DNA of 32,000 nucleotides from Candidatus Electrothrix sp. GW3-4 (GCF_037902255.1 NZ_CP147990.1:3810001-3842000), one strand, 5' to 3'. Counted from the stretch's first letter, positions 1 to 20,440 are shown. The notes: generated by a model from the letters alone, not told the origin. Program-made: numbers and translations.

Positions 1-2499
1 CTCTCCTCTCTCTGCCTCAGCAAGGAGTTGTTGCAGTGGATCAACGATATTCCTCTCCTGCAAGGAAGGAGCGGAGAGCTGTCCGGCCTCAGCATCCTGC
101 TTCCCGCTATTATGCCGACCAGCTGTTTCTCCAACCCATTTGCTCAACGCCAAAAAGAGATTATTCCGGTTAATCGGCTTAGCAATATGATCGTTCATAC
201 CGATCTGGAAGCATTTATCCCGCTCTTCGCTCACGGCATGGGCCGTCATGGCAAGGATGGGCAGATCTGTTTTTCCCAGGTCCTGACGAATCGCCTTTGT
301 TGCCTCATACCCATCCATAACCGGCATCTGAATATCCATGAGCACGGCATCAAAATCTCTGGCAGCCACAGCCTCAACCGCCTCTTTTCCATTACAGACC
401 GTTTCCACATGCAGGTTTGCCTTGGCAAGGATCTCCTGAGCCACCTGTTGGTTGATCATATTATCCTCAACCAGCAAAATACGCGCATAGCGGATGGCCG
501 TCATAGCTGCTGCGGTTTCACTTGTGCCACTGGTACCCTCGTTTTCTTTTTCCAGACCATTGAGGGCAAAACTCAGGGAGAAAGAAAAACTACTCCCGCG
601 TCCCACCTCACTCTCCACAGACAACTTGCCCCCCATGAGCGAGACCAGTCGTTTACAGATCGTGAGCCCGAGGCCCGTGCCCCCGTATTTCCTTGCCGTG
701 GAATTATCCGCCTGGGTAAAGGACTCAAAAAGAAGGGCTATTTTTTCCTGGGCAATCCCGATCCCGGTATCGCTGACAGTGAATTGGATAACTGCACGGT
801 CTAATCTATGCTGCACGACCTTGGCTTGAACAATAATCTCCCCCTCATCAGTAAATTTAATAGCATTACCAATGAGATTGGACAAGACCTGATACAGACG
901 CATGGGATCACCGATAACATGTTCCGGCAGATCCGAGGACAGATCAAGAATGAGTTGCAGATTCTTGCGCTGACTCTGCTCAGTGAACATCAACATCAAC
1001 TTATCAAACAGGCCAGACAGACCAAAATAGATCTTTTCAAGCGTGAGCATTCCGGCTTCAATCTTTGAAAAATCCAGGATATCATTAATTATCTCTAAAA
1101 GATTCTTGGAAGAAAAAAGAATCTTCTTCATATAATCAGACTGTTTATCGGTCAGCTCCGTTTCCAGGGCCAATTCAGAGAGATTGATAATACCGTTCAT
1201 CGGCGTCCTGATTTCATGGCTCATATTGGCCAGGAATTCAGACTTGGCAAGAGTGGCAGCATGGGCCTTATCCATAGCCTTGGTCAGCTCCCGATTCGAC
1301 TTTTCCAGCCGCTGGCGATAGGAAAGAAAAAGGGTTCGAACCTTATGAGAAAACAGCAGGGAGATACACAGGGCGCCGAGGAGGATAAAACAAAAAATGG
1401 CAAGAGAGATCCGTATCTTTTCGCGAAAGAGCTTTTTATGTTGTTCTTTAATGCGGTCGATTTGTTCAATCAGATCATCAAAGTAAAAGCCCCGGGCAAT
1501 AATCCAACTCCATTTTGGATAGAGTTTAAAATAGGACATCTTAGGACGGACTTCATCGCTTCCTGGTTTTTTATCCCGGTATTTGACAAAGACTTCACCA
1601 TGCTCTTTGAGACCGTTGAGAAATTTTTCCCGAAATTTTTCCCCTTCAGAGTCCTGATACTCATCACTGAGAAGGTTATTGATCGGATCCGGCTGATTAG
1701 GATTCACCAGCATGGTGGCGAATTTTTTGCCGCCCTTCATACTGCGGAGATCCAGGACGAACATATACTCGTTATCAGTTCGGTTGGCGTGCTGATTGAT
1801 GATGTTGGTGACATGCTGCTGGGCATCACGTTCAACTTCAACCAGATAATCACCTGCCCCGATATACCAGTCAAAGGGCTCAAAATGCTTTATATAGGCT
1901 ATTTTCTGAAAGAGTTTATCAGGGTCCTCTCCAGGCTTGGGCCAGAGATATTCATTGAATCCGCTACCGTGATGGCGGACAGTGGCAAACATACTGTTAA
2001 AGACCTGCAATCTGTTTTCATTGCTGTTATTATAAATACTCTTGCCCTCCTGGGTAGGATCAGGAGGCCAAAGCTTGGTGATACCTGACATGGAACGGAT
2101 AAAGAAATAATTCCGCCCGTTGTTAAAGGTTATTGGCCGAATCGCCTCAATGATCAACTCTTCCAAGGTGTCCTTATTCATTGTTGCTGCATTCTGCCGA
2201 TAGAGATGCATGGCAATGGAGTGGATCTGCTCCACCTGGTCCCGCAGGGTACGCCGCAGCATGGCATTGGTGGTCTTGTGCCGCATATCCATGCTGTTGA
2301 TAAAGTCAAGCACTGACTCACGAACACTGATCTTTTTATTCTTGATGTACTCCTCCTCCATCTGGAGGAGCTCCATCTTGAGATTAATTTCAGAATCCCA
2401 AAAGGTATGTGCCACAATTCCCAGCCACATCAGCAGAGCAACCAGGCTTGAATTGAGGATAATCAGTTTACCGATATTTTTTTCGCTGAATATTTTCAT
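1..2499 (-). CDS. Hybrid sensor histidine kinase / response regulator with a periplasmic Cache-like sensor domain (3' end runs off the window)
   Basis: Absent from the ORF track because the frame has no stop inside the window. Hand translation of the minus strand from the ATG (complement of 2497-2499) stays open to position 1 (833 codons). It contains an N-terminal TM segment, a Cache-like block (FNNGRNYFFIRS, KLWPPDP), a second TM (ISLAIFCFILLGALCISLL) and the H-box SHEIRTPMNGI (about 1190-1221). These are followed by the N-box NLIGNAIKFT, G-boxes DTGIGI and GGTGLGL, and a receiver domain (ILLVEDN, LMDIQMPVMDG, PILAMTAH at about 235-265). The plus-strand ORFs 28-804, 808-1068 and 1216-2088 are its antisense shadows. 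Confidence 0.85.
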   Translation of the reverse strand, partial: MKIFSEKNIGKLIILNSSLVALLMWLGIVAHTFWDSEINLKMELLQMEEEYIKNKKISVRESVLDFINSMDMRHKTTNAMLRRTLRDQVEQIHSIAMHLYRQNAATMNKDTLEELIIEAIRPITFNNGRNYFFIRSMSGITKLWPPDPTQEGKSIYNNSNENRLQVFNSMFATVRHHGSGFNEYLWPKPGEDPDKLFQKIAYIKHFEPFDWYIGAGDYLVEVERDAQQHVTNIINQHANRTDNEYMFVLDLRSMKGGKKFATMLVNPNQPDPINNLLSDEYQDSEGEKFREKFLNGLKEHGEVFVKYRDKKPGSDEVRPKMSYFKLYPKWSWIIARGFYFDDLIEQIDRIKEQHKKLFREKIRISLAIFCFILLGALCISLLFSHKVRTLFLSYRQRLEKSNRELTKAMDKAHAATLAKSEFLANMSHEIRTPMNGIINLSELALETELTDKQSDYMKKILFSSKNLLEIINDILDFSKIEAGMLTLEKIYFGLSGLFDKLMLMFTEQSQRKNLQLILDLSSDLPEHVIGDPMRLYQVLSNLIGNAIKFTDEGEIIVQAKVVQHRLDRAVIQFTVSDTGIGIAQEKIALLFESFTQADNSTARKYGGTGLGLTICKRLVSLMGGKLSVESEVGRGSSFSFSLSFALNGLEKENEGTSGTSETAAAMTAIRYARILLVEDNMINQQVAQEILAKANLHVETVCNGKEAVEAVAARDFDAVLMDIQMPVMDGYEATKAIRQDLGKTDLPILAMTAHAVSEERDKCFQIGMNDHIAKPINRNNLFLALSKWVGETAGRHNSGKQDAEAGQLSAPSLQERNIVDPLQQLLAEAERGE

Positions 2500-2746
2500 G
2501 GTAACGCAATCAAAAAATGATTATTGATCATACTTATATAGTTTTACACGCAGATATCAAACGAATACAAGAATAATCGTTCCATGGCCGCAGGAAGCCT
2601 TCTTCTTTTCCCCGAACGACTGAAGAGGCAAGATACTTTTTATAACATCCAGAGGGAGAGGGGCTGCTGCGATGCGTTCTTCTCTCCCTACACTTTTTTC
2701 GCATCAGGCCATCCCACCACCGAACATGAAATTATGAATAAACATT

Positions 2747-3544
2747 ATGAATGAACAAGAACTATTTACTTTACTGCAACGAGTGAAAAACGGAAGGATA
2801 AACCCGGAACAGGCCCTGAAAAAAATACGCCTGCCACCAGTGGAAGTCCTGGACTCTGCCCGGCTGGATCACCACCGGGTGCTGCGCACCGGCCTTCCTG
2901 AGGCTATTTTTGGTGAGAACAAAACCGTTGACCAGCTGATTGAAATCCTCCGGGCCATGCTTAAGCGCCCAACCGTGGTGCTGGCCACCCGTATTGAACC
3001 CGACAAGGCACATCAGGTCTGCGCCCAGGTTGCGGGCTTGCACTATCACAAAACCGCTCGCTTACTGGTAGGGAACAAAGGGGCTATCCCGGAAAACATC
3101 GGCAGAGGAACCGTGATGGTGGTGACAGCAGGGACCTCTGATCTGCCGGTTGCCGAGGAGGCACGGCTCTGTCTCACATATTTTGGCCATCCAGTGGACA
3201 CCCTGTATGATGCCGGGGTAGCGGGCATCCATCGCATCCTGGCCCACGGAGAACAACTTCAGCAGGCCTCTGCCCTGATCGTGGTGGCGGGCATGGAAGG
3301 GGCCCTGCCCTCGGTGGTGGCGGGCATGACCCCGGCACCAGTGATCGCCTGCCCCAGCTCTATTGGCTACGGTACCGGGGCAGGTGGTTTTTCCGCCCTG
3401 CTCGGCATGCTCAACAGCTGCGCTGCCGGGATGGCAGTGGTCAATATCGACAACGGATTCGGGGCTGCCTGTATGGCCGCTGCCATCAACAGAAAACAAT
3501 TCGATCCAGCGTCAGAAGAGCATTTTTTGCCTCCTGAAGAGTGA
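2747..3544 (+). CDS. larB: LarB-like nickel-pincer cofactor biosynthesis protein (PurE/AIR-carboxylase fold)
   Basis: 265-aa ORF with PurE-like blocks VMVVTAGTSDLPVAEEA, IVVAGMEGALPSVVAG and PVIACPSSIGYG, plus the roughly 110-aa N-terminal extension typical of LarB rather than PurE. Confidence 0.75.
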   Translation: MNEQELFTLLQRVKNGRINPEQALKKIRLPPVEVLDSARLDHHRVLRTGLPEAIFGENKTVDQLIEILRAMLKRPTVVLATRIEPDKAHQVCAQVAGLHYHKTARLLVGNKGAIPENIGRGTVMVVTAGTSDLPVAEEARLCLTYFGHPVDTLYDAGVAGIHRILAHGEQLQQASALIVVAGMEGALPSVVAGMTPAPVIACPSSIGYGTGAGGFSALLGMLNSCAAGMAVVNIDNGFGAACMAAAINRKQFDPASEEHFLPPEE

Positions 3545-3591
3545 AATTTCCACCGAAGACGGAGAAACCGAGAAAAAATCGCTCCCCGACG

Positions 3592-3620
3592 TTGCAAGAT
3601 ATCCCTCCCTGACGTATATT
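3592..3620 (+). promoter_or_regulatory. Candidate sigma70-type promoter for secDF (TTGCAA, 17-nt spacer, TATATT)
   Basis: TTGCAA at 3592-3597, a 17-nt spacer, and TATATT at 3615-3620, about 105 nt upstream of the secDF ATG. Sequence pattern only. Confidence 0.35.
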
Positions 3621-3726
3621 CCTGAATATTTTCTCGTCATCTCGTATCACAACTCGTACCAACAAGATAATTGAGCCGATTCGTTCATCCACGTTAAATA
3701 CTATTCGTTTACCTGGGAAAACATCC

Positions 3727-6294
3727 ATGAATACCAACCTGAAACTCAAGATCGGGCTACTTTTTACCCTCATCCTCTTTTCTGTCATGACCATTGTGCC
3801 CTCCTTTTACAAGGACTCGCCGGAATGGTGGAAAAAATACCTGGCACCGCAAGGGCTGAAACTCGGCCTGGACCTTCAAGGCGGGGTCCACATGGTTCTC
3901 CGGGTCGATCTGGATAAGGCGGTGACCAATAATCTTGATCTTGCTGCCCAGGAGCTGAAAAAGGGACTGGCCAAGAAAGACATCTCTGTTGTGCAGTTGG
4001 ACGCACCTGATCCTGCCCAGGTTATCTTTACCCTGCCCAATACCGGGGTGCTGGATCAAATCAATGATACCCTGAAAGAGGATTTTCCCGATCTGGACAT
4101 TGATGTGCAGTCCGAGGAGGGCAGCTTTCCCCGCATTACCCTGAGGTTGACTCAGGAGCAGGTGAATTTTGTTCGCGAGAACGCAGTGGATCAGTCCCTG
4201 GAGATTATCCGAAACCGGGTTGACCAGTTCGGTGTGGGCGAGCCGGTCATCGTCCGCCAGGGCGAAGCAGAGATTGTGGTCCAGCTGCCCGGCATTGAGG
4301 ATCATGAGCGGGCAAAAGAATTGATTAACAGCACTGCACAACTGGAGTTCAAACTGGTTGCCCAGCATAACGTGAATCTGCAAGAGCTGGTTAATCAAGC
4401 CAAGGCCGCAGGCCAATGGCAGGAGAGCGGCGGCGATGCAGAACAGCTTAAGAAACTTAATCTGGCCCTCCAGACCAGTCTGCCCAAGGGGACAGAAATT
4501 GCCTTTCAGCTTATCGAGGATAAGCAAAACCAAGAGGCGGGCAAGAAACCCATCCTGCTGGAGAGCCCGGTCCTCATGACCGGGGATATGGTCAAGGATG
4601 CCCGGGTCGGCTATGGCGGCACCTTTAACGAACCCCTGGTCAGCCTCCGTCTTACCGGTGACGGCAGTGATAAGTTTGCCGACATTACTGAGGCCAATGT
4701 CAACAGGCAGCTGGCCATTGTCCTGGACGGGGTAGTGCGCTCTGCTCCGGTTATCCGGGAACGGATCCTCGGCGGTTCAGCCCAGATCTCCGGGAGTTTT
4801 ACCCAGACCGAGGCCAGTGATCTGGCCATTGTCCTTCGGGTCGGTGCCTTGCCAGCCCCGGTTGAAACTATCCAGAACATGACGGTCGGCGCCAGCCTCG
4901 GGCATGACTCCATTATGAAAGGCCTGACCTCGGGCCTCTTTGGCGCCTTGATGGTCCTGGTCTTCATGGTGATCTACTATCGGCTCTCCGGGGTGATTGC
5001 TGATCTGGCCCTGGCCCTGAATATCCTCTTTCTCTTTGCTGGCCTGGCCATGCTCGGCGCCACCCTGACCCTGCCCGGTATTGCCGGTATCATTCTCTCC
5101 ATCGGCATGGCAGTGGATGCCAATGTCCTGATCTTTGAGCGCATGCGAGAGGAATTCGCCCTGGGCAAATCGGCCCGTTCCGGGGTGGATACCGGTTTTG
5201 AAAAGGCCTTCTGGTCCATTGTTGACTCCCAGGTGACTACCCTGATCACGGCCCTGGCCCTGTTTCTCTTTGGTACCGGTCCGATTAAGGGTTTTGCAGT
5301 CACCCTGTCCCTGGGCATTATCTTTAACCTCTTTGCCGTGTTGTTCTGCACCCGTTTGGTCTACGACTGGATCTTCAGTCGTCACAAAAAAATGCATGAA
5401 CTCAAATTCCTCCAGTTTGTCAAAAAGCCCAATTTCAATTTTATGGGGGTCAGAAAAATTGCCTTTACCGCCTCTGCGATCCTGGCCATCTTCGGGACAG
5501 TGGCCTTTGTTGAAATCCTGCTTGGTCAGGCCAACCTTGGGGTTGATTTCTCCGGCGGTTCACTGTTGCAGTATAAGGCAGACCAACCCTTTCAACTGGA
5601 TGCCATCCGCTCTGCCTTGAACAAGGGGAATTTCGGCTCAGTGGATCTCCAGCAGGTAACCGGAGAAAATCGCCTGATCGTCAAGGTGAAAAAGACCGAA
5701 GACACGGTGGGCCATCTGGGCGATGAGATTACAGCGGTGCTGGCCCAGCAGCAGGGTAATACCTTTGCCCTGGAGAGTCAGTCCGAGATCGGCTCCTCAG
5801 TCTCTGATGTCCTGCGGAATAAGGCCATTGAGGCCATTGCCATCTCCCTGCTCGGTGTGCTGCTCTACCTGGCCATTCGCTTTGATTTCAGCTTTGGCCT
5901 GGCAGCGGCAGCAGCCACCTTCCACGACGTGCTGGTGGTGCTGGGGATCTGCTGGTTGCTCAATGTAGAGGTCAACCTGCTCCTGGTCACAGCCCTGCTC
6001 ACCCTGGCTGGTTACTCTCTGAACGACTCGGTGGTTGTCTTTGACCGCATCCGGGAAAACCTGGGGCGCTTTCATGAGAAAGACTTTAATGAGATCATCA
6101 ACATCAGCATCAATGATGTCTTGGGCCGTTCCGTGGTGACCTCGCTGACCACCTCTCTGGTCCTGGTTGCCCTGTTCTTCTTCGGCGGTTCAGCAATCCA
6201 TGATTTTTCTTTTGCCCTGCTGATGGGTGTGCTTGTGGGTACCTATTCTTCAGTGTTTATTGCCAGCCCGCTGCTTTCGTTGAAAAAACGGTAA
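3727..6294 (+). CDS. secDF: Fused protein-export membrane protein SecDF
   Basis: 855-aa ORF with an N-terminal TM and a large periplasmic domain containing the SecD signature GLDLQGGVHMVL, followed by a TM bundle. A second half begins with the SecF-like signature LGVDFSGGSLLQY and a second TM bundle. The single polypeptide equals a SecD-SecF fusion. Confidence 0.9.
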   Translation: MNTNLKLKIGLLFTLILFSVMTIVPSFYKDSPEWWKKYLAPQGLKLGLDLQGGVHMVLRVDLDKAVTNNLDLAAQELKKGLAKKDISVVQLDAPDPAQVIFTLPNTGVLDQINDTLKEDFPDLDIDVQSEEGSFPRITLRLTQEQVNFVRENAVDQSLEIIRNRVDQFGVGEPVIVRQGEAEIVVQLPGIEDHERAKELINSTAQLEFKLVAQHNVNLQELVNQAKAAGQWQESGGDAEQLKKLNLALQTSLPKGTEIAFQLIEDKQNQEAGKKPILLESPVLMTGDMVKDARVGYGGTFNEPLVSLRLTGDGSDKFADITEANVNRQLAIVLDGVVRSAPVIRERILGGSAQISGSFTQTEASDLAIVLRVGALPAPVETIQNMTVGASLGHDSIMKGLTSGLFGALMVLVFMVIYYRLSGVIADLALALNILFLFAGLAMLGATLTLPGIAGIILSIGMAVDANVLIFERMREEFALGKSARSGVDTGFEKAFWSIVDSQVTTLITALALFLFGTGPIKGFAVTLSLGIIFNLFAVLFCTRLVYDWIFSRHKKMHELKFLQFVKKPNFNFMGVRKIAFTASAILAIFGTVAFVEILLGQANLGVDFSGGSLLQYKADQPFQLDAIRSALNKGNFGSVDLQQVTGENRLIVKVKKTEDTVGHLGDEITAVLAQQQGNTFALESQSEIGSSVSDVLRNKAIEAIAISLLGVLLYLAIRFDFSFGLAAAAATFHDVLVVLGICWLLNVEVNLLLVTALLTLAGYSLNDSVVVFDRIRENLGRFHEKDFNEIINISINDVLGRSVVTSLTTSLVLVALFFFGGSAIHDFSFALLMGVLVGTYSSVFIASPLLSLKKR

Positions 6295-6350
6295 GGAATT
6301 CGTTCAAAAACGAGATCCCCCTACGGGGGTCCGGCAGAAGAATTCAAAAA

Positions 6351-6386
6351 AACGGGATGTGCCGCGAGGCGCATCCCGTTTTGCAT
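6351..6386 (+). terminator. Rho-independent terminator after secDF (possibly bidirectional)
   Basis: 13-bp stem AACGGGATGTGCC / GGCGCATCCCGTT (one G-T wobble) with loop GCGA. An A-run lies upstream and TTTGCATTT downstream, 57 nt after the secDF stop. Confidence 0.7.
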
Positions 6387-6465
6387 TTCAGGGTTGGTTA
6401 TACTCAGGGTGTTACCCTGAGCTGATGGACACAGCCCCGTTGGGGCAAAAAAGCCCGAAGCCCGT

Positions 6466-6497
6466 TTTTCTGGTTTTCTGGTTTTCTGGTTTTCTGG
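6466..6497. repeat. Octanucleotide microsatellite (TTTTCTGG) x4
   Basis: Four perfect head-to-tail copies read directly from the sequence. They abut the REP-like palindrome at 6497. Confidence 0.9.
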
Positions 6498-6541
6498 TTC
6501 CCAAGCTCCAGCTTGGGAACATTGCCTTGAAGCTCTGCTTC
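6497..6541. repeat. REP-like two-hairpin element, copy 1
   Basis: GTTCCCAAGCT-CC-AGCTTGGGAAC (11-bp arms) followed by TGAAGCTCTGCTTC (GAAGC-N3-GCTTC hairpin). The reverse complement recurs at 13702-13751. Confidence 0.75.
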
Positions 6542-6546
6542 CCCGG

Positions 6547-7206
6547 TTATAAAAGAAAATCGTCGTCCATCGGGGCAACATAATGATATTCATCTGGCCC
6601 GCATTTCTTTGCCAGTTTGTTCACAACATTTTTGACAAAGCTTGGCTTATCATAAGGACCGGCCATATAAAAGGGCTTGCCGTTTTTGCCGAATTCAAAG
6701 GAACGAGGACAGGCAGCACTCTCGATATCGCCGAAGATCTTTTTTGCCTCCCGGTAGTCCTTATGCGGAGAGAAACCCAGGTTTGCAGCATATTCCCCCG
6801 CTTTTTCAATAAGTTTTCTGGCGCAGGTGGGATGTATTTTTTTAAGCTTCCCCTGCATGTTGACCTTTTCCAGGAAAGATGGGTAGTTTTCTTCGTTAAA
6901 TACTCTGACAAAGCAGTCTTTAATGCCAAGGCAATAGACATCAATGAGAAAAACGCCTGCCAGGATATCGCCATTGTTTGCTTTTCGGGTGATCATAACT
7001 GAGCCAATACCCACGTCGCTATCCTGGTCAAAGAGCGGTTCAGCTTCCCAGCACTCATAAACCGGGGCATTGAAGGCCTGCTGCATTGCCAGCTTACGGC
7101 TGAAAGCGGACATCAGGCCCTTTTGTTTCTGTGCTGTTTTACGGGCCTTGCTTTTCGCGGCCTGTTTTGCTTTTTTCTTTTGTAGTTTTTTCTGATTTAA
7201 TGCCAT
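6547..7206 (-). CDS. Hypothetical 219-aa protein with a lysine-rich N-terminal tail; last gene of the CHAT-STAND operon
   Basis: The ORF track gives 6547-7383, but its first 59 codons overlap the 3' end of the upstream gene and read as W/P/G-rich off-frame sequence. The ATG at 7206 gives MALNQKKLQKKKAKQAAKSKARKTAQKQKG followed by a globular-looking body. I see no convincing Shine-Dalgarno sequence, so the start is uncertain (alternatives are M32 and M40 of the 219-aa version). No family recognised. Confidence 0.6.
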   Translation of the reverse strand: MALNQKKLQKKKAKQAAKSKARKTAQKQKGLMSAFSRKLAMQQAFNAPVYECWEAEPLFDQDSDVGIGSVMITRKANNGDILAGVFLIDVYCLGIKDCFVRVFNEENYPSFLEKVNMQGKLKKIHPTCARKLIEKAGEYAANLGFSPHKDYREAKKIFGDIESAACPRSFEFGKNGKPFYMAGPYDKPSFVKNVVNKLAKKCGPDEYHYVAPMDDDFLL

Positions 7207-7258
7207 GTTGAGTTCTTTATGTTGAGATTGAAATATGCATCTCAGGATGCCTTCAGGA

Positions 7259-10200
7259 TTAGCCAGAGGTACTGGAATCCTCAGCATCCATAAGCTGTTT
7301 TGCCAGCCGGGCCCATCCCTGTAACCCACCTTCCAGGCCAAGTTGCCCGGCCAGCCTTTCCAAGGCTGCCAATGCCTGGGCAAGGTTCATCTTACTGGCC
7401 CATAGATAGACCTGCACCCAGCAGCCCAGGGCCTCCGGCACCTCTTCATTTTGGATGTGGATATGGCCCATATTGAACATGGTAGCGCATAACCCGGCAA
7501 CGTCACCGATTTCCCGCTGTATTGCCAGCGACTGTTTCAGATAGTCCAGCGCGGTCTCGTAATCGCCTCGGGCGTCATAGATCTGTGAGATATTATTGAG
7601 GGTGGTTCCTTCACCGGATTTGTCACCGATTTCCCGCCTAATTGCCAGCGACTGTTTCAGATAGTCCAGCGCGGTCTCGTAATCGCCTCGGGCGTCATAG
7701 ATCTGTGAGATATTATTGAGGGTGGTTCCTTCACCGGATTTGTCACCGATTTCCCGCTGTATTGCCAGCGACTGTTTCAGATAGTCCAGCGCGGTCTCGT
7801 AATCGCCTCGGGCGTGATACAGTGCTGAGATATTATTGAGGGTGGTTCCTTCACCGGATTTGTCACCGATTTCCCGCTGTATTGCCAGCGACTGTTTCAG
7901 ATAGTCCAGCGCGGTCTCGTAATCGCCTCGGGCTTTGAAAATCTGTGAGATATTATTGAGGGTGGTTCCTTCACCGGATTTGTCACCGATTTCCCGCCTA
8001 ATTGCCAGCGACTGTTTCAGATAGTCCAGCGCGGTCTCGTAATCGCCTCGGGCGTCATAGATCTGTGAGATATTATTGAGGGTGGTTCCTTCACCGGATT
8101 TGTCACCGATTTCCCGCCTAATTGCCAGCGACTGTTTCAGATAGTCCAGCGCGGTCTCGTAATCGCCTCGGGCTTTGAAAATCTGTGAGATATTATTGAG
8201 GGTGGTTCCTTCACCGGATTTGTCACCGATTTCCCGCCTAATTGCCAGCGACTGTTTCAGATAGTCCAGCGCCTCGGAGTAACTGCCGATATGCAGCAGC
8301 TGTTTACCGGTCTGGCCAAGGGCCTCGGCCCGTGTCTGCTCATCCTCAGATCGACAAATCGCAGGCAACCAATGTTCCAACAGGGCCTGGTATTGCCCAT
8401 CCCTACTCAACCAACCAACGATGTAATCCAGGGCCAAGCGGTCTGCCTCCTCCTGCCGCTCTGCCATTTGCAAGGCTTGATGACAGGTAATGATATGCTG
8501 TACACTTCGGTACTGCCCCTGCTCAAAAAGATAGATCAGGTAATCAGCCGCAAGGCTACGCAAAGGGGTGGCGGGCGGGCCAGCCTGTTGCGCCAGCAAC
8601 TCGCAGACCAGGGCCGGGCATTGATATTCCTCTGTCTGAAGCCGCGGATTCCAGCGCTGTTCCAACAGAGACAGGTCAAGTAATCGCTGCAAACATCCTT
8701 CCGGGTTCGGCAAATCCAGGCCCAATTTGACCAAACCCTCCAGGGGCACCGGCACCGGATAGACCGGCAGCCGTTCCAACAGGCCCTTCTCCTCTGGGCT
8801 CAGCCGAGTGATGATCTCCTCCAGGCACATATTGACCTGAATCTCTTCCCTGGCCCGCTCCAGGGCAAGAAACAGCTCTTCTTCCTCCCGAGCATTCATC
8901 TCCTTGATCGCAGCAGCAAAGAACTCCAATCCTCGCCCGTTGCCGTGCAGGACCTCATAGGCCCGACGCAAACGTTTTCGGTCCCCGTAAAAAGAAAAGG
9001 GGAGACGGAGTTGGCGGGCCATGGCAAGAAAATCACCGTAGTTTGTTTTCCCCAAGGACTGATGATCTGCCGCAGGCCAGTCCGGCAAACAATGGCGGGA
9101 GGTGAGCAGAAGGATCAAGCCCTTGCCAACAAATTTACGAGCAGCAGCCAACCAGCTCCGCACGCTTTCATTGCTGATCTCCAGACTGTCCCTCTCCTGA
9201 AGAGACTCCAGGTTATCAAGGACCAGGACCAGTGTATTGCCCGTGGCCCGAAGCAGCTCTTCCAGCAACATTTCCAGACGGTCCTGCTCGTTATCCAGAT
9301 TGGCTTCCAGGTCTTTATAGAAGTCCCGTGTCTCCTCTGGTCCCAGCAGTCGTCTGAGCAATCCTCTTACCCGAAAGGTAAATTTCTTCAGACGTTGCTC
9401 GGTCTCTTCCTCATCCAACCCAGCCTGAAAAACCAGCGAGGTAAAGCCCCGGCGCTCCAGATCCAGGGCCAGCTTACCAGCCAACGCGGTTTTGCCCTGG
9501 CCCCCCGGCCCGGTGAGCAGTAACTGGCCAGCGTGTTCCCGGAACAGCCTCCTCCTAATCCGGCGCAGCTCCGAACGCCGCCCGATAAAGAGCGGTGGCA
9601 GGGTGAGATCCCCCAGTCCCCGACTCAGCGGCACCTGCGGCGGCTTGGGGGCAAAGTTCCAGTCAATCAGGGGCCGGGCCGGGTCCTGAGTAAAGAGCAT
9701 GGGCAGGCACCACTGCCCTCGACTTAACTCCACAGCCCCACTCAGCTCGCTGTTATCCCGCAGGACGCCGCTTCCTTCCGATGATCCTGCTGCTTGCTGG
9801 ATAGCCTGCCGGGCCTCTTGCAGGGCCAGATCCACCCGCTCGCCCTGGGCCACGGCATCACAAAAGGCATGGGCCAGCAGGATACCGGCCAGGTCCTGCA
9901 ACGATTCCCGCATCCCAATGACCTGGGGAATCCCCTGCTGCGCCAAGCGACGAGCCAGGCCAGCAGTCAGCGACGTTGAGGCGGCCTTGCCGGACTCACA
10001 AGCCGAGAGGACCAGACATTCCACCGGGGCACCGATCAGGGCCGTTGCCAGCTCTTCCCCCTGCACCGCATGGCCCTGATCGATCTCATCCTCAAAAAGA
10101 AAGATACCAAAGGGCTCTTCGCCAGTATGAGGCTGGTGATAGAATTTGCCGTGCCCGGAAAGAAAGACAACATGCGGCCGAAAATTCCTCAGTAAGTCCT

Positions 10201-10756
10201 TAAAGGTGGAAAAACGGCCGTCATCAGGCATCTCCAGCTCTACCCGCCCCTCGGCAATCCGGGGCAGCAGGGCCTCCAGCACCCGTGCCTGCTCCTCTTC
10301 CACATCCAGGCGGCTGCGATGGGCATCCATATCATCGGGCAGGGCAGTGAAGAGCAGGACCCGCAAGGGGCCGGTCTCTAACGGTGCAGGTTCGGCCTGA
10401 TGCTCTTCTGGCACCGCAAGGGAACGGGACAGGGTAAAACGCGATTTCCTGCCCAGGAATCCCTGCTCCTGATGATAGAGGAGCTCCCAGGGCAGATATT
10501 GAATCTCGGCATCCCCGCTGCTGATCAAGATCGGCAGGACCTGATTGCCGAGCTTCCCCAGGGCCTCTTCCAGGCCCCCGTCCTGGTCCAGCACCTGCCA
10601 GAGATGCGCCCCAACTTGCTTCAGCGCCTCATCAGGAACGACATGATTTACGGCATAGGCCTGCTCCATGGCAGAGGCTTCACGCCGCAGGGCAGGATGC
10701 TGTTTCAGGAGATCAGCAGGCGGACAGAGGAGGAAGGACCTTTCGGCAACACGCAT
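7259..10756 (-). CDS. CHAT (caspase-like protease) - STAND/NACHT-type P-loop NTPase - TPR repeat fusion protein (NLR-like)
   Basis: 1165-aa ORF.
- CHAT: His-Cys dyad context VVFLSGHGKF (His202, nt 10151-10153) and CLVLSACESGKA (Cys253, nt 9998-10000).
- NTPase: Walker A LLTGPGGQGKTALAGKLA (Lys422, nt 9491-9493), Walker B LVLVLDNLES, and a GxP-like helical-arm motif LHGNGRGLEFF.
- C-terminus: seven 40-aa TPR units (consensus GDYETALDYLKQSLAIRREIGDKSGEGTTLNNISQIYDAR).
- A GGAGG RBS lies 6 nt upstream, inside the end of the preceding gene. Confidence 0.9.
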   Translation of the reverse strand: MRVAERSFLLCPPADLLKQHPALRREASAMEQAYAVNHVVPDEALKQVGAHLWQVLDQDGGLEEALGKLGNQVLPILISSGDAEIQYLPWELLYHQEQGFLGRKSRFTLSRSLAVPEEHQAEPAPLETGPLRVLLFTALPDDMDAHRSRLDVEEEQARVLEALLPRIAEGRVELEMPDDGRFSTFKDLLRNFRPHVVFLSGHGKFYHQPHTGEEPFGIFLFEDEIDQGHAVQGEELATALIGAPVECLVLSACESGKAASTSLTAGLARRLAQQGIPQVIGMRESLQDLAGILLAHAFCDAVAQGERVDLALQEARQAIQQAAGSSEGSGVLRDNSELSGAVELSRGQWCLPMLFTQDPARPLIDWNFAPKPPQVPLSRGLGDLTLPPLFIGRRSELRRIRRRLFREHAGQLLLTGPGGQGKTALAGKLALDLERRGFTSLVFQAGLDEEETEQRLKKFTFRVRGLLRRLLGPEETRDFYKDLEANLDNEQDRLEMLLEELLRATGNTLVLVLDNLESLQERDSLEISNESVRSWLAAARKFVGKGLILLLTSRHCLPDWPAADHQSLGKTNYGDFLAMARQLRLPFSFYGDRKRLRRAYEVLHGNGRGLEFFAAAIKEMNAREEEELFLALERAREEIQVNMCLEEIITRLSPEEKGLLERLPVYPVPVPLEGLVKLGLDLPNPEGCLQRLLDLSLLEQRWNPRLQTEEYQCPALVCELLAQQAGPPATPLRSLAADYLIYLFEQGQYRSVQHIITCHQALQMAERQEEADRLALDYIVGWLSRDGQYQALLEHWLPAICRSEDEQTRAEALGQTGKQLLHIGSYSEALDYLKQSLAIRREIGDKSGEGTTLNNISQIFKARGDYETALDYLKQSLAIRREIGDKSGEGTTLNNISQIYDARGDYETALDYLKQSLAIRREIGDKSGEGTTLNNISQIFKARGDYETALDYLKQSLAIQREIGDKSGEGTTLNNISALYHARGDYETALDYLKQSLAIQREIGDKSGEGTTLNNISQIYDARGDYETALDYLKQSLAIRREIGDKSGEGTTLNNISQIYDARGDYETALDYLKQSLAIQREIGDVAGLCATMFNMGHIHIQNEEVPEALGCWVQVYLWASKMNLAQALAALERLAGQLGLEGGLQGWARLAKQLMDAEDSSTSG
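7502..8270. repeat. Near-perfect 120-bp tandem repeat array (about 6.4 units) encoding the TPR sensor region
   Basis: The period of 120 is visible as alternate 60-nt lines repeating (7501/7621/7741 and so on). Units are identical except at two short cassettes: CTGTAT vs CCTAAT, and GCGTCATAGATCTGT vs GCGTGATACAGTGCT vs GCTTTGAAAATCTGT. Confidence 0.95.
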
Positions 10757-10758
10757 GA

Positions 10759-11013
10759 TTATTCCTCCGCTTCGACAGGGACAGGAGAAGGAAAGCTCCA
10801 GCCCTCTGTAGAGCTCTTCTCCTCCCCACCGCTACGAGTGATGGTATTATCGCGGATAATACGATATCTGTTCAGAGTAACTGTCCCGCTGGTACCGCAG
10901 TAGGGACATTGCACTCGAAGCCTGGGTTGCCCTTCCAGCTCAAGGGTCAATTCATAGATACGGTTGCAGTCCGAATTATAGCATCGTAAAGGCAGACGGC
11001 GAGTTTCTGACAT
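10759..11013 (-). CDS. Small zinc-ribbon protein (84 aa), translationally coupled to the CHAT-STAND gene
   Basis: Cys pairs CYNSDC and CPYC, about 25 residues apart, flank a beta-rich segment. The C-terminal tail is acidic and low-complexity (SGGEEKSSTEGWSFPSPVPVEAEE). The stop at 10759 lies 2 nt from the downstream ATG at 10756. A GAGGT RBS precedes the ATG. Confidence 0.7.
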   Translation of the reverse strand: MSETRRLPLRCYNSDCNRIYELTLELEGQPRLRVQCPYCGTSGTVTLNRYRIIRDNTITRSGGEEKSSTEGWSFPSPVPVEAEE

Positions 11014-11024
11014 GGCTCAATACC

Positions 11025-11492
11025 TCAATAATAGATGGAAAGAACGGCAGAGCAGATACCGATGAAGAGGAGAAGAGCAGACGGCAGAATCAACCGTCGC
11101 TTATGGCGGGCTGTTTTTTGAAAATAATCCCGGATCCCCAACGGGGCCTCATGGGCAAAGCTATCCTTCTCCATGATTCGCTCATCCACCTGCCAGGAAC
11201 GGGGCAGCAGAGCAAGTAGGGTCAGCACCAGGGCTGCCAGCCAGCAGAAAAAGGCGGCCGTGAGAAAAATGTTCATGGGAGCCATAGCCTTGGCCCCGGC
11301 AACCAGCTTGAGCACGGTGGCAAAGAGGCCGGGAATGGCCAGCTCCAGGGTGATGAGCCGCTCCGCCATCCGGTCCAATCGCTCGGACTGACCTGCCAGA
11401 TCCTCGGCGTACTTGCTGACCAGGACCTCTTCCACTGGGGTAACAGGATCCATATCCAGGATTTCTGCCTGTCTCAACTCTTCCGATGGCAT
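11025..11492 (-). CDS. Three-TM membrane protein (155 aa); first gene of the operon and a candidate membrane effector
   Basis: Strong RBS AAGGAGG upstream of the ATG at 11492. An acidic cytoplasmic N-terminus is followed by a hydrophobic hairpin (LITLELAIPGLFATVLKLVAG, MNIFLTAAFFCWLAALVLTLLALLP), a roughly 35-aa soluble linker and a terminal TM (LILPSALLLFIGICSAVLSIYY). An 11-nt gap separates it from the next gene. Confidence 0.7.
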   Translation of the reverse strand: MPSEELRQAEILDMDPVTPVEEVLVSKYAEDLAGQSERLDRMAERLITLELAIPGLFATVLKLVAGAKAMAPMNIFLTAAFFCWLAALVLTLLALLPRSWQVDERIMEKDSFAHEAPLGIRDYFQKTARHKRRLILPSALLLFIGICSAVLSIYY

Positions 11493-11707: not shown

Positions 11708-12621
11708 ATGAAGATCCCCTACGGAGAAAGCAGCTTTAAAAAAATCAGAACTGGCGATTACCTGTACATCGACAAGACCGCCTACATCGCCCCCCTGGAG
11801 GAAGAAGGCTGCTTCAACATCCTGCTCCGCCCCCGCCGCTTCGGCAAAAGCCTCTTTCTCTCCACCCTCTGGCATTACTACGATGTCCACTATCAAGATC
11901 AATTTGGGTCCCTCTTTTCCGGGCTTGCCATCGGCGAAGCCCCTACCCCACTGCGCAACAGCTACCAGGTGCTCTTTATGGAGTTCAGTGGCATCCGCGA
12001 CAACAATACTGCAACAATCCTTGAGGATTTCCTCTTTGAAATCCGCAAACGACTCCGCATCTTCTAAGTAACAACACATTTATATTGTTGTTATTTGGAA
12101 ATTTGGTCCCGGGCGCAGGCCGGGGGGAGCGCTTTTTAGAGGATTACCAATACCCGCAAGAGGACATCAACCGCCTGGAAGCGGCAAGTGAACTCTCTCC
12201 TGCCTCCTTAATGAAGCTCTTTTTCGAAATAATCAGGGATCAAAAAATTTATCTGATGATCGACGAATACGATCATTTCGCCAATAGCCTGCTCGGCACC
12301 AGCCTGGAACGTTTTCAGGAGATCATCGGCAGGGGCGGCTTTGTCCGCAGCTTTTACGAGACCATAAAAACCGCGACAATGGAGGGCATTGTTGACCGCT
12401 TCTTCATCACCGGCGTCACCTCCATCACCCTGGACAGCCTGACCAGTGGCTTCAACATCGGCAATAATATTACCCACCACCAGGGATTCAATCAGGCCAT
12501 TGGCTTTACCCATGAGGAAGTCGCGACCACAATCCAGCCCCTGGTTACTGCCTGCGACCTTGAGCAGCCAGTTCCTGCCTGTAGGGCCGCTGAAAGACCT
12601 GTCCCAGATGTTCCGAGGTAA
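11708..12621 (+). pseudogene. Disrupted and truncated AAA-ATPase-like (PF09820-type, normally AAA-ATPase + PD-(D/E)XK_9) gene
   Basis: The N-terminus MKIPYGESSFKKIRTGDYLYIDKTAYI...LRPRRFGKSLFLSTL is the hallmark of this family. The frame ends at 12067 and homology resumes in another frame near 12130 (KIYLMIDEYDHFANSLL...FFITGVTSITLDSLTSGFNIG). Family-like sequence stops near 12546, and no C-terminal nuclease domain is present. Confidence 0.7.
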
Positions 12622-12866: not shown

Positions 12867-13418
12867 TCAAAGGTAAGGCGGCTGTGACCTTGAACTACTG
12901 TTTTCCATACCTTTATCAGCATTAATTGTCAGAATATCAGTACCGTATTTCTCATGAATTACAGGCCATATTTCCTCAAGTCGATCGACAATAAAATCAC
13001 TGCTCACCTACCCCAATGTAAAAAACAAAAAAAGATCATCGTGTTCTGGCAGGAAGAAGCCGAAAGGAGTCAGTTTCTCTTTGACTCCCAAATCATGATC
13101 CTCGGCTTTAGTCAGAACGCGATTTCGTCCTCCTCGAGAGAAATTTCCTATATTCATTCGTGCTTTCGCATCAATCGATATTCGAACTTCTTTCGGATTA
13201 CTGTCCGCTTCTTCGTTGGCTTTATGAACCTGCTCGAATATCGCGTCAGTTTTTTGGCATGCTTCATATACCCCAAAAAGTAGTTGACACTTTTTGCAAG
13301 AACTGTGCCAAGCTATTAGCACAGGATAAGCCAAGCGCCTCCCCAACGGTTTGACTTTATGTGTATTGTAGCAGTTCTCTTGTTTGAGGTGAGATTCAAC
13401 CCATCCAGAAAGTGTCAA
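12867..13418 (-). pseudogene. ISAzo13-family (DDE_Tnp_ISAZ013-like) transposase remnant
   Basis: The motifs TDAIFEQVHKANEEAD, RISIDAKARMNIGNFSRGGRNRV, EDHD, KLTPFGFFLPEHDDLFLFFT, then (after an in-frame TAG at 13008-13010) SSDFIVDRLEEIWP and LTINADKGMENSSSRSQ match my memory of this transposase family. The N- and C-terminal portions are missing. No inverted terminal repeats identified. Confidence 0.6.
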
Positions 13419-18905: not shown

Positions 18906-19038
18906 ATGCTCTAGCATGGAGTGATTCTACATGCTAGCATTGAGACCCTCTACATGCTAGCTTTGGGAGTCTCTCCATGCTTGCATTGAGACCCTCTACA
19001 TGCTGGCATTGAGATTTTCTACATGCTGGCATGGACTA
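18906..19038. repeat. Array of about six 21-25-bp direct repeats with a palindromic core (consensus CTACATGCTAGCATTGAGACCCT)
   Basis: Units occupy 18906-18926, 18927-18949, 18950-18974, 18975-18995, 18996-19018 and 19019-19038. The core is ATGCTAGCAT, a 10-bp perfect palindrome in unit 18927-18949 and degenerate in the other units (ATGCTGGCAT in 18996-19018 and 19019-19038). The array lies in the divergent intergenic region between the HU-like gene and the low-GC islet. Confidence 0.85.
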
Positions 19039-19216
19039 AAATCCCATCCCTGATCTGCATACTGAGTGTGTTGTTTTGTGGAGATTTCCCTGTTGACATG
19101 GGGAGTTCCGGTGTCTATGTTGGATGATTAAGTATCTCTGGAGATAACAGGAAATTGAGAATGAAAAATTTCCACTTATTAACACTGGTTGCTTATACAA
19201 CAAAGAGGATAAGTAA

Positions 19217-19873
19217 TTGGAATACCTGAAGCTACTTCTGGAATATATAAAAGTTCTAGTTTGGCCAATAGTTACCGTCGTTCTAGCTTTTACATTTAAA
19301 GATTCGTTAATGGAGTTATTGTCAAGGCTTCAGAAAGCTGACTTACCTGGTGATGTTTCTTTAGACTTTACGCAAAACTTGGAGGAAGCAAAGGAACTAT
19401 CTAGGAAGGTGGAAGAAACTCCTATGAGAGAGGAGCATAAAAACGTACCAACTATCCCTTTAACCGATGCAAACTCTCGTTTAATATCTGTTGGATTACA
19501 GCCTTCTCCTTCGGGATTAGATATGAACTACTACCGTGAACTTGCCAATCAAGATCCAAATTTAGCTTTGGCAGGTTTGAGAATGGAAGTTGATGTGTTG
19601 GCTAGGAACCTCGCTAAAGGATTTAATATAAATATCAAAAAAAATGATGGGGGCATGAGGATTCTTGACGTTTTATATCACAATGGCGCTATATATAAAG
19701 AACAAATGATGCTTGCTAAAAAGGTGCTATCCTTATGTAATGCCGCAATTCACGGAAAAAACGTATCAAAAGGGCAAGCATTAGATGTAATAGATCTAAC
19801 AGATGTTCTAAAAGGGGATTATATACGCTGGCTAAGCTGGGGGTTTCCTGATGGCTGGCAACCACCTGAATAA
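19217..19873 (+). CDS. Hypothetical membrane-anchored protein with a DUF4145-like C-terminal domain (low-GC gene)
   Basis: 218-aa ORF from a TTG start (RBS-like AGAGGA upstream). It has an N-terminal TM (VLVWPIVTVVLAFTF). The C-terminal helices LAGLRMEVDVLARNLAK ... LSLCNAAIHG resemble the R/E...N-A-x-H signature I associate with DUF4145. G+C is about one third in sampled lines. Confidence 0.55.
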   Translation: MEYLKLLLEYIKVLVWPIVTVVLAFTFKDSLMELLSRLQKADLPGDVSLDFTQNLEEAKELSRKVEETPMREEHKNVPTIPLTDANSRLISVGLQPSPSGLDMNYYRELANQDPNLALAGLRMEVDVLARNLAKGFNINIKKNDGGMRILDVLYHNGAIYKEQMMLAKKVLSLCNAAIHGKNVSKGQALDVIDLTDVLKGDYIRWLSWGFPDGWQPPE

Positions 19874-19993
19874 TATACGCATAACACTGAGGTTATAAGT
19901 TGGCAATGCATGGTTCTCTTTTGTTGCACTCAGGCAGACTTACATGGGTTTCATGCAGGAATTCAGCAAAATACAAAAAGTTAATCAATAACA

Positions 19994-20440
19994 ATGGCAA
20001 GTCGCAATCTGGATTATTTGAAAATCGAACCGTGGCATTTCTTTTCAAATGAAAAGGAAAAGACGAAGTTTAATTGGTTCGCATTTGAATTGGCATGCGA
20101 GATTGATCGCGCGGTACCTTTTGCAACCAAGAAGTATTTAGCTAGAAAAGGCTATACAAAACAACGATTCAACAAGTCATGTATAAACCTGGCAATGTTA
20201 CTGCAAGGAATAGTGCTGAAGAAATTGAGGGGTGAGATCCCGGAGATGGAAATAAATCACACCGAAGTAGAAAAGGCATTTCCGAGGCTAAATAACAAGA
20301 ACGTCAATAAGCTGCTAAACTACACAGGAAAGGCTTGGGAAAACCTGCTGGATATCTGTATTTCATGTCCTTCAGCATGCATTTCAAATAAAGACGAGTA
20401 TTGCGTGATGTTTGATGATGAGTCGTACTATAGCCTATGA
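19994..20440 (+). CDS. Hypothetical 148-aa protein with a C-terminal Cys cluster (low-GC gene)
   Basis: ATG-initiated ORF with the C-terminal cluster CISCPSACISNKDEYC. No family recognised. Its composition matches the preceding gene. Confidence 0.5.
   Translation: MASRNLDYLKIEPWHFFSNEKEKTKFNWFAFELACEIDRAVPFATKKYLARKGYTKQRFNKSCINLAMLLQGIVLKKLRGEIPEMEINHTEVEKAFPRLNNKNVNKLLNYTGKAWENLLDICISCPSACISNKDEYCVMFDDESYYSL

Follow-up and report, generated by a model that had tools for sequence, protein, structure and literature searches.

Genes of the locus and domains of g3

In the genome of Candidatus Electrothrix sp. GW3-4, a cable bacterium of Desulfobacterota, a stretch of 32,000 nucleotides (GCF_037902255.1, NZ_CP147990.1:3810001-3842000; hereafter, the window) contains four minus-strand open reading frames (ORFs) between positions 6547 and 11492. 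These are g1 (11025-11492), encoding a 155-residue three-helix membrane protein, g2 (10759-11013), encoding an 84-residue zinc-ribbon protein, g3 (7259-10756), encoding an 1165-residue protein in which a predicted CHAT protease, a STAND NTPase and a TPR array follow one another, and g4 (6547-7206), encoding a Lys-tailed protein of 219 residues, as counted from the ATG. The spacers measure 11 (g1-g2), 2 (g2-g3) and 52 (g3-g4) nucleotides, and a GGAGGA sequence lies within the 3' end of g2, immediately ahead of the g3 ATG. An earlier note on this DNA had described a four-gene operon, with all genes co-directional, these same gaps and coupling through ribosome-binding sites placed in the upstream gene. 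The layout agrees with the ORF coordinates and the coupling with the position of GGAGGA. The membership of g4 does not stand: the conserved unit comprises the three genes g1-g2-g3, with g4 being a resident neighbor excluded from it, so that the term 'four-gene operon' overstates conservation. A consensus scan for promoters and terminators was uninformative, with counts at or below shuffled expectation.

The N-terminal part of g3 (residues 48-323; 9788-10615, minus strand) was matched by the Pfam CHAT model (PF12770) with an E-value of 1e-36 and 127.4 bits, as compared to a cut-off of 24. The motifs that include the predicted catalytic residues read SGH202G (His202 codon, 10151-10153, minus strand) and SAC253ESG (Cys253 codon, 9998-10000, minus strand). 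Both residues, like Lys422 of the NTPase considered below, were free of substitution in alignments of 14 and of 52 homologues, the latter assembled from sequences at 45-85% identity. In the profile of the g3 family, GHG and AC line up with the corresponding positions of a CHAT protein of solved structure, 8tl0, and a Foldseek comparison of the g3 model with this SAVED-CHAT filament gave an E-value of 2.4e-8. More than 332 g3 homologues were found at 43-85% identity over the first 790 residues. The CHAT domain of g3 is thus, as judged from its sequence, a predicted caspase-like protease with an intact His/Cys dyad.

The CHAT domain is followed by a predicted STAND NTPase, comprising a P-loop domain, a helical domain and a winged helix (residues ~385-790; 8387-9604, minus strand), assigned on the basis of motifs, an AlphaFold2 (AF2) model and Foldseek matches. 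The best Pfam NTPase model was AAA_16 (residues 390-523; 44.8 bits, cut-off 32.6), while NACHT (PF05729) missed its gathering score (19.7 vs 26.7 bits). The motifs identified were a Walker A sequence, GPGGQGK422T (K422 codon, 9491-9493), a Walker B sequence, LVLD514NLE517 (D514/E517, 9206-9217), and a TSR554 sensor motif (9095-9097), all on the minus strand. The P-loop from G418 to T423, D514, E517 and T552-S553-R554 were invariant across the 52 homologues. For residues 1-790, the AF2 model was returned with a predicted local distance difference test score (pLDDT) of 85.3 and a predicted template modeling score of 0.76; its top Foldseek matches in the PDB were 6mfv (an archaeal STAND-TPR protein), 8tl0, Apaf-1, CED-4, the plant NLR resistosomes ZAR1/NRC and MalT. 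The STAND matches were of probability 1.00, with E-values of 1e-8 to 1e-6 over ~400-450 columns. Together, the Pfam matches, the invariant motifs, the alignment with 8tl0 and the structural comparisons identify g3 as a predicted caspase-like protease fused directly to a STAND module of the Apaf-1/CED-4 type.

The C-terminal part of g3 is a TPR array consisting of seven near-identical 40-residue units and a divergent cap (7379-8359, minus strand), as delineated by Tandem Repeats Finder (TRF), by comparison of the protein units and by TPR_12, which matched g3 in six stretches. At the DNA level, TRF reported a tandem repeat at 7502-8272 with a period of 120 bp, 6.4 copies and 95% matches. Similar arrays were found in 51 of 82 g3 genes, the copy number ranging from 2.5 to 12.4 and the identity among copies reaching 98%. 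Within a given protein, differences between units cluster at positions 12-16, corresponding to the end of helix A, and at position 35, as tallied over 140 units of 18 proteins drawn from g3 genes that include that of the window and loci L013-L091. These variable positions are reminiscent of hypervariable sites in the repeats of fungal NLRs, and TPR and WD repeats of high self-similarity are known from fungal and bacterial NLRs (Dyrka et al., 2020, 10.1101/2020.01.06.895854). Rapid change in TPR copy number and variable unit positions fit an evolving sensor.

What the earlier note had read in g3 was largely borne out. The His/Cys dyad and the P-loop proved to be invariant and aligned in the profile comparisons, rather than degenerate or misplaced, the Walker A/B NTPase with its STAND-style helical arm was supported by fold matches as well as by motifs, and the seven TPR units were recovered, together with one cap. 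As for the Pfam profiles considered there, CHAT, AAA_16 and TPR_12 all matched g3, with NACHT alone remaining below its cut-off.

The two small proteins encoded upstream of g3 also correspond to their initial descriptions, namely, a 155-residue protein with three transmembrane (TM) helices and an 84-residue zinc-ribbon protein. The AF2 model of g1 (pLDDT 82.5) contains helices at residues 19-65, 75-95 and 120-154, and hydropathy places TM helices at ~46-65, 75-96 and 132-155, with TM1 being the second half of the long helix 19-65. Both the acidic N-terminal helix and the TM2-TM3 loop are predicted to be cytoplasmic, g1 being a probable inner-membrane protein. TM1 is the best-conserved part of the protein, presenting a LELAIPG...KL motif with near-invariant polar residues E50 and K62 and a Pro-Gly pair. 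A profile search of 1.84 billion proteins yielded 234 representatives of the g1 family, nearly all stand-alone proteins of ~150 residues, and no Pfam, NCBIfam or PADLOC family was matched. The identification of g1 as PycTM (PF18967), as flagged by a database Pfam annotation, was rejected, given that the match could not be reproduced (E-value 2.1; 9.2 vs 27.2 bits), that the profile search stays within the 234 stand-alone relatives and that no cyclase gene is present.

In g2, a four-Cys ribbon (C10/C15...C34/C37; Cx4C...CxxC) is followed by a variable linker and a proline-rich hydrophobic C-terminal tail, which reads WSFPSPVPV in the window and l.LPdvLPT in the family consensus. Of 67 sequences, 36 fit the strict tail pattern; conservation of the 'LP' proline is at least 90%. 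Pfam returned weak zinc-ribbon matches only, and no Pfam, NCBIfam or PADLOC model was matched by g2 above noise. When the concatenated g1 and g2 sequences served as query, relatives of g1 alone were recovered; relatives of g2 were found as ORFs between g1 and g3. In the window and loci L013-L091, the g2 tail (10759-10800) and the N-terminal strand of g3, PFxIxPPADLL (10700-10756), loosely share a pattern of hydrophobic, Pro, acidic and hydrophobic residues, a vague likeness that may reflect chance or mimicry.

Linkage of the trio, the resident gene g4 and the insertion site

To consider the neighborhood of g3 in other genomes, the aligned CHAT-NTPase region served as query against a set in which each species is represented by one genome. 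This revealed 79 loci; a single g3 sequence revealed none. In most of these loci, the g1 profile found a match directly upstream of g3 and on the same strand. Between g1 and g3 lie ORFs for zinc-ribbon proteins akin to g2, and the profile derived from these matched 66 of the 79 loci. Upstream DNA of 1 kb or more was available for 71 loci; of these, 60 contained both g1 and g2, all in the order g1-g2-g3, four contained g2 only and seven neither. The reverse search, starting independently from five g1 homologues, led to eight loci, each of which presented g1-g2-g3 in this order. All-against-all clustering of the flanks of the 79 loci revealed no fourth conserved neighbor, the largest cluster, the Uma2 family, being found at seven. 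As such, g1 and g2 are dedicated partners of g3. Of the four genes in the earlier note, these three co-occur and mostly keep their order; the profile of g4 matched none of the 87 cassette loci considered, as described below.

Several loci depart from this arrangement. In L045, L056 and L084, from two Chlorobiaceae genomes and one Thermodesulfobacteriota genome, g1 and g2 lie downstream of g3. In an Anaerolineales locus (L034, 2267-10489), two tandem full-length g3 paralogues of 1326 and 1171 residues follow a single g1-g2 pair, while in a metagenome contig (L099, 1116-3684), two overlapping ORFs take the place of an intact g3, owing to a frameshift or an assembly error. In L098, a gene called on the opposite strand suggested that g3 is disrupted, but six-frame translation did not bear this out. 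Finally, in an Electrothrix-related genome (L092, 372-18248; GCA_024449855.1), a cassette with a 1427-residue g3 lies between a pair of HSP70 genes, one of which is fused to vWA, and a gene with a faint DO-GTPase2 match. HSP70-vWA and DO-GTPase2 are component types of published conflict systems (Kaur et al., 2020, PMC7159879), and L092 is possibly a cluster of such systems.

The g3 loci are found in Chloroflexota (~32), Chlorobiaceae (9), Chromatiales (6), Competibacteraceae (5), Beggiatoaceae, Thiothrix, Thioploca, Thiomargarita and other Thiotrichales (~10 in all), other Gammaproteobacteria or unclassified proteobacteria (~10), SAR324 (3) and Desulfobacterota (4). The cassette is thus scattered over at least five phyla, with its hosts belonging mostly to filamentous or aggregate-forming lineages, a trend also published for NLR-like and caspase systems (Kaur et al., 2020; Dyrka et al., 2020). 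In three cases, two loci occur in one assembly (L018/L024, L021/L028 and L057/L068). Among the nearest flanking genes (116 genes matching 138 Pfam families), a handful encode integrases, IS110 transposases, HsdM or Uma2, a weak signal of mobile elements and restriction.

The position of g4 is different. The protein, 100% identical to WGN25_16850, had been called an orphan; at least 87 homologues were found, and it is therefore not one. Orthologues at 82% identity occur in Ca. Electrothrix aarhusensis and in three metagenome contigs. There they are flanked by a class-II aminoacyl-tRNA synthetase gene on one side and by secDF, in convergent orientation, on the other, and the vicinity contains no CHAT gene. 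When the window was compared by blastn with the Electrothrix contigs L005, L006 and L007, 83% identity was obtained over 121-7236 and none beyond. The syntenic region covers secDF and g4 and ends 22 nucleotides past the g3 stop codon and 30 nucleotides before the g4 start, such that the junction (7237-7258) falls inside the g3-g4 spacer. At the syntenic site of the congeneric Ca. Electrothrix aarhusensis, the cassette is absent. Distant g4 homologues, from Verrucomicrobia, Lamprobacter and others, have unrelated neighbors; no CHAT gene adjoined g4 homologues in the 12 loci considered, and the g4 profile found no match in the 79 genome g3 loci or in eight further cassette loci (0/87). The break in synteny, the resident orthologues and the 0/87 result together indicate that g4, with a short leader, is ancestral at this site. 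It is g1-g3 that lie beyond an insertion or rearrangement junction, in an insertion-like position and with a patchy spread across phyla.

The notion that the Lys-tailed protein is a component of the system is accordingly rejected. In its favor, g4 is co-directional with g3 and begins 52 nucleotides downstream, and the consensus scan predicted no terminator in the spacer; read-through or co-transcription into g4 is, therefore, possible in GW3-4.

Other features of the g4 region and of the cassette surroundings were noted. In proteins of the g4 family, of ~215 residues, an N-terminal tail rich in Lys precedes a globular C-terminal region. For g4 itself, searches of PDB, Pfam, PADLOC, NCBIfam and PHROG returned no match. 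The family is found in Electrothrix, where secDF is its fixed neighbor, in Desulfobacterota-like metagenome contigs, in Verrucomicrobia, in Lamprobacter and in Methyloprofundus. The intergenic region between g4 and secDF contains a perfect 8-bp tandem repeat, TTTTCTGG, in 4.2 copies (6466-6499), near hairpin and T-run sequences that resemble a bidirectional terminator. On the other side of the cassette, directly upstream of g1 and divergent from it, lies a PF09820 'AAA-ATPase_like' gene (11708-12621, plus strand) that is split into ORFs of 119 and 178 residues and is probably a frameshifted pseudogene. This is followed by mobile-element debris, namely, a fragment of an ISAzo13-type DDE transposase (13008-13418, minus strand) covering positions 68-152 of the 308 positions of the PF07592 profile. 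At 19001-20000, GC content falls locally to 0.385, as compared to ~0.5-0.6 around this segment.

Relation to known systems

The architecture of g3 has precedents. CHAT-NLR-TPR proteins and self-similar repeats have already been cataloged in multicellular bacteria (Kaur et al., 2020, PMC7159879; Dyrka et al., 2020), and novelty is limited to the conserved g1 and g2 partners. One of the two closest published arrangements is the EACC1-caspase pair, a two-gene membrane-associated conflict system referred to as 'System 4' (Kaur, Burroughs, Iyer and Aravind, eLife 2020; PMC7159879). Like the cassette, it consists of a gene for a small membrane protein at the 5' end, followed by one for a caspase-first protein with variable modules that include STAND and superstructure-forming repeats, and it too is enriched in multicellular prokaryotes. 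The two differ in that EACC1 is a mainly actinobacterial protein with one conserved glycine-rich TM helix, whereas g1 has three TM helices and the AIPG/K motif and is found in Chloroflexota, Proteobacteria, Chlorobiaceae and Desulfobacterota. A Pfam scan of g1 up to an E-value of 10 gave only noise, although the presence of an EACC1 model in that Pfam set was not confirmed. The supplement of Kaur et al. contains no mention of Chloroherpeton, Teredinibacter or Marichromatium, all genera with g3 homologues, nor of Thioploca or EACC1.

The other is found in multicellular bacteria, in the form of the Bell-domain/NLR collinear pairs and the 'all-in-one' CHAT-NOD-TPR NLRs (Dyrka et al., 2020, bioRxiv 10.1101/2020.01.06.895854, with Koonin and Aravind, 2002, cited therein). 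Here, as in the cassette, the gene for an NB-ARC/TPR NLR is directly preceded, in collinear orientation, by one for a small helical protein that putatively executes cell death, and the NLRs described often carry CHAT at the N-terminus and TPR repeats of high internal conservation, as does g3. Still, the Bell domain is soluble and comprises ~100 residues, whereas g1 is an integral protein with three TM helices and is not Bell-like. The cassette, moreover, presents no evident paired amyloid (BASS) motif, its protease is fused to the NLR and it includes an extra zinc-ribbon partner. Indeed, a zinc-ribbon gene between the two other genes figures in neither the EACC1-caspase nor the Bell/NLR description.

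In terms of structure, the NTPase module of g3 is closest, by Foldseek, to the Apaf-1/CED-4 apoptosome and to plant NLR resistosomes. The logic of Apaf-1, that is, a repeat sensor, NTP-dependent oligomerization and caspase activation, may be shared, yet in g3 a caspase-like domain takes the place of the CARD adaptor, TPR units that of WD40 or LRR repeats, and identity is 14-16%. With gasdermin systems, Craspase (TPR-CHAT/Csx29-Csx30) and SAVED-CHAT, the cassette has in common a protease of the CHAT or caspase-like type, its dyad intact, encoded beside small proteins that are likely substrates. Unlike these, it contains no gasdermin, CRISPR/gRAMP, SAVED or cyclase gene, nor is one found nearby. 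No gasdermin match was obtained for g1, g2 or g4, g1 being an all-helical membrane protein, and no CRISPR-associated neighbor, as in type III-E loci (gRAMP/Cas7-11, Csx30), was seen in the window or among the conserved neighbors. The domain order also differs, being CHAT-NTPase-TPR in g3 and TPR-CHAT in Craspase, and activation of g3 presumably proceeds via its STAND module.

Finally, g3 resembles Avs and bNACHT proteins as a large protein in which an N-terminal effector is followed by a central STAND NTPase and then, at the C-terminus, by TPR-like repeats, and a 2026 survey reports caspase-like N-termini on some bacterial STANDs. The cassette is distinguished from Avs by the lack of a PADLOC Avs or NLR-like match, by the sub-threshold NACHT score, by its near-identical repeats and by its two obligate small partners. 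The statement of the earlier note that its combination of proteins corresponds to no named defense system holds as far as the trio is concerned, given that PADLOC-DB v2 yielded nothing meaningful for g1, g2 or g4 and contains no model of the trio, and that no named system of this composition was found in the literature searched; the Lys-tailed g4 does not belong to the combination.

Proposed function and its alternatives

The segment 7259-11492 is probably a self-contained, horizontally acquired three-gene cassette, most likely serving as an NLR-like conflict module in abortive infection or programmed cell death. Conflict or abortive death is the preferred interpretation, plausible by analogy to the systems described above, to which the patchy and insertion-like distribution may be added. 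If the analogy to Apaf-1, Avs, plant NLRs and protease-based immunity in bacteria holds, a trigger would be bound by the TPR array of g3, the STAND NTPase would then oligomerize, and the clustered CHAT domains would become active and cleave a partner. In this manner, g3 could act as an 'all-in-one apoptosome', comprising a CHAT protease, an Apaf-1/CED-4-type NTPase and a fast-evolving TPR array.

As to how g1 and g2 may participate, a tentative preference goes to a scheme in which g2 is the substrate or latch and g1 a membrane-disrupting executioner that, once freed or activated by cleavage, would kill the affected filament cell. It is less probable, again arguing by analogy, that g1 and g2 tether or sense at the membrane and that the CHAT protease itself kills. 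A more specific proposal, similarly doubtful, is that g1 is the founder of a new family of membrane 'executioners' held in check by g2, with g3 cleaving g2 or g1 at or near the conserved proline-rich hydrophobic C-terminal tail motif.

A number of points weigh against the conflict reading. The AF2 model of g1 has no significant structural neighbor in the PDB, the best match being NINJ1 at an E-value of 0.9, and the basis for an executioner role is analogy only. The TPR units, near-identical as they are, might provide a scaffold instead of a specific sensor. Neither g1 nor g2 lies beside g3 in seven of the 71 loci noted above. The genes flanking the cassettes are mostly housekeeping genes, and there is therefore no clear defense-island signal. 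Against PADLOC-DB v2, g3 gave a generic TPR match and weak matches to SAVED_CHAT (E-value 1e-6), PDC-S39/S73, mad8 and IetA. Lastly, and in itself a neutral point, no relative was found in 2.9 million viral contigs, and PHROGs gave no match.

The alternative that survives best, if still rather unlikely, is that g1, together with g2, senses envelope damage or injection at the membrane and activates or positions g3, with the protease killing via cellular proteins and the TPR array serving as a scaffold or substrate platform. The gene order, with a small TM protein at the 5' end and a caspase-first multidomain protein at the 3' end, is that of 'System 4' (Kaur et al., 2020), conservation of TM1 of g1 (E50, K62 and Pro-Gly) exceeds the need of a simple anchor, and the near-identical TPR units are more scaffold-like than bespoke-sensor-like. 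At the same time, a STAND NTPase joined to a repeat array is normally the sensor and switch itself, and the three TM helices of g1 contrast with the one glycine-rich helix of EACC1. In characterized protease-based systems, moreover, the adjoining small proteins are substrates, as is the case for gasdermins, Csx30 and CalpT.

The possibility that the cassette is not concerned with immunity at all, instead being a regulatory or developmental protease switch of filamentous bacteria (in division, filament breakage or differentiation) or a signaling NTPase of the MalT/AfsR type, is weaker. HetF, a CHAT protease, is an example of such developmental control. The mostly filamentous hosts, the many housekeeping genes among the flanks, the structural likeness to MalT and a weak NCBIfam match of g3 to HetF (E-value 1.2e-8, far under the cut-off of that model) would all be in line with this possibility. 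It is opposed by the lack of the cassette at the syntenic site of a congeneric species, by the mobile-element debris alongside, by the multiple copies in some genomes and by the spread over at least five phyla. The hypervariable repeat array likewise belongs with these traits of accessory conflict genes, unlike core regulators, and no DNA-binding output domain was found among the Pfam matches of g3.

It is very improbable that the cassette is a kin- or allorecognition device comparable to fungal HET NLRs, in which the TPR repeats would recognize polymorphic non-self proteins once cells touch or fuse, with death as the outcome. Such an idea has been raised in the literature for multicellular bacteria, and high repeat conservation with few variable positions mirrors NLRs of the HET-E/D type. 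Yet these bacteria are not known to mix their cytoplasm, and a polymorphic partner locus was not found, leaving this as purely an analogy. Least credible of all is a four-gene system with g4 as partner or substrate of the CHAT protease, which, as a conserved association, is refuted by the retention of the g4 orthologues beside secDF with an aminoacyl-tRNA synthetase gene in place of the cassette, by the end of synteny in the g3-g4 spacer, by the unrelated contexts of distant homologues and by the 0/87 count.

Returning to the preferred reading of a conflict module, caspase-NLR fusions of multicellular bacteria are candidate prokaryotic roots of apoptosis and innate immunity, almost none of which have a defined output. 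The cassette offers a compact, well-delimited and widely recurring unit with two candidate partners. Because g1 and g2 are the obvious candidates for substrate and executioner, the target and mode of death of a bacterial caspase-NLR become directly testable; g4 is best omitted from any construct. Were the executioner reading correct, a complete death pathway, from sensor through caspase to executioner, would be encoded by three genes, and multicellular filamentous bacteria, cable bacteria included, would sacrifice infected or damaged cells. As the sacrifice of a single cell would cut the conducting filament, the balance of cost and benefit in cable bacteria would be of special interest.

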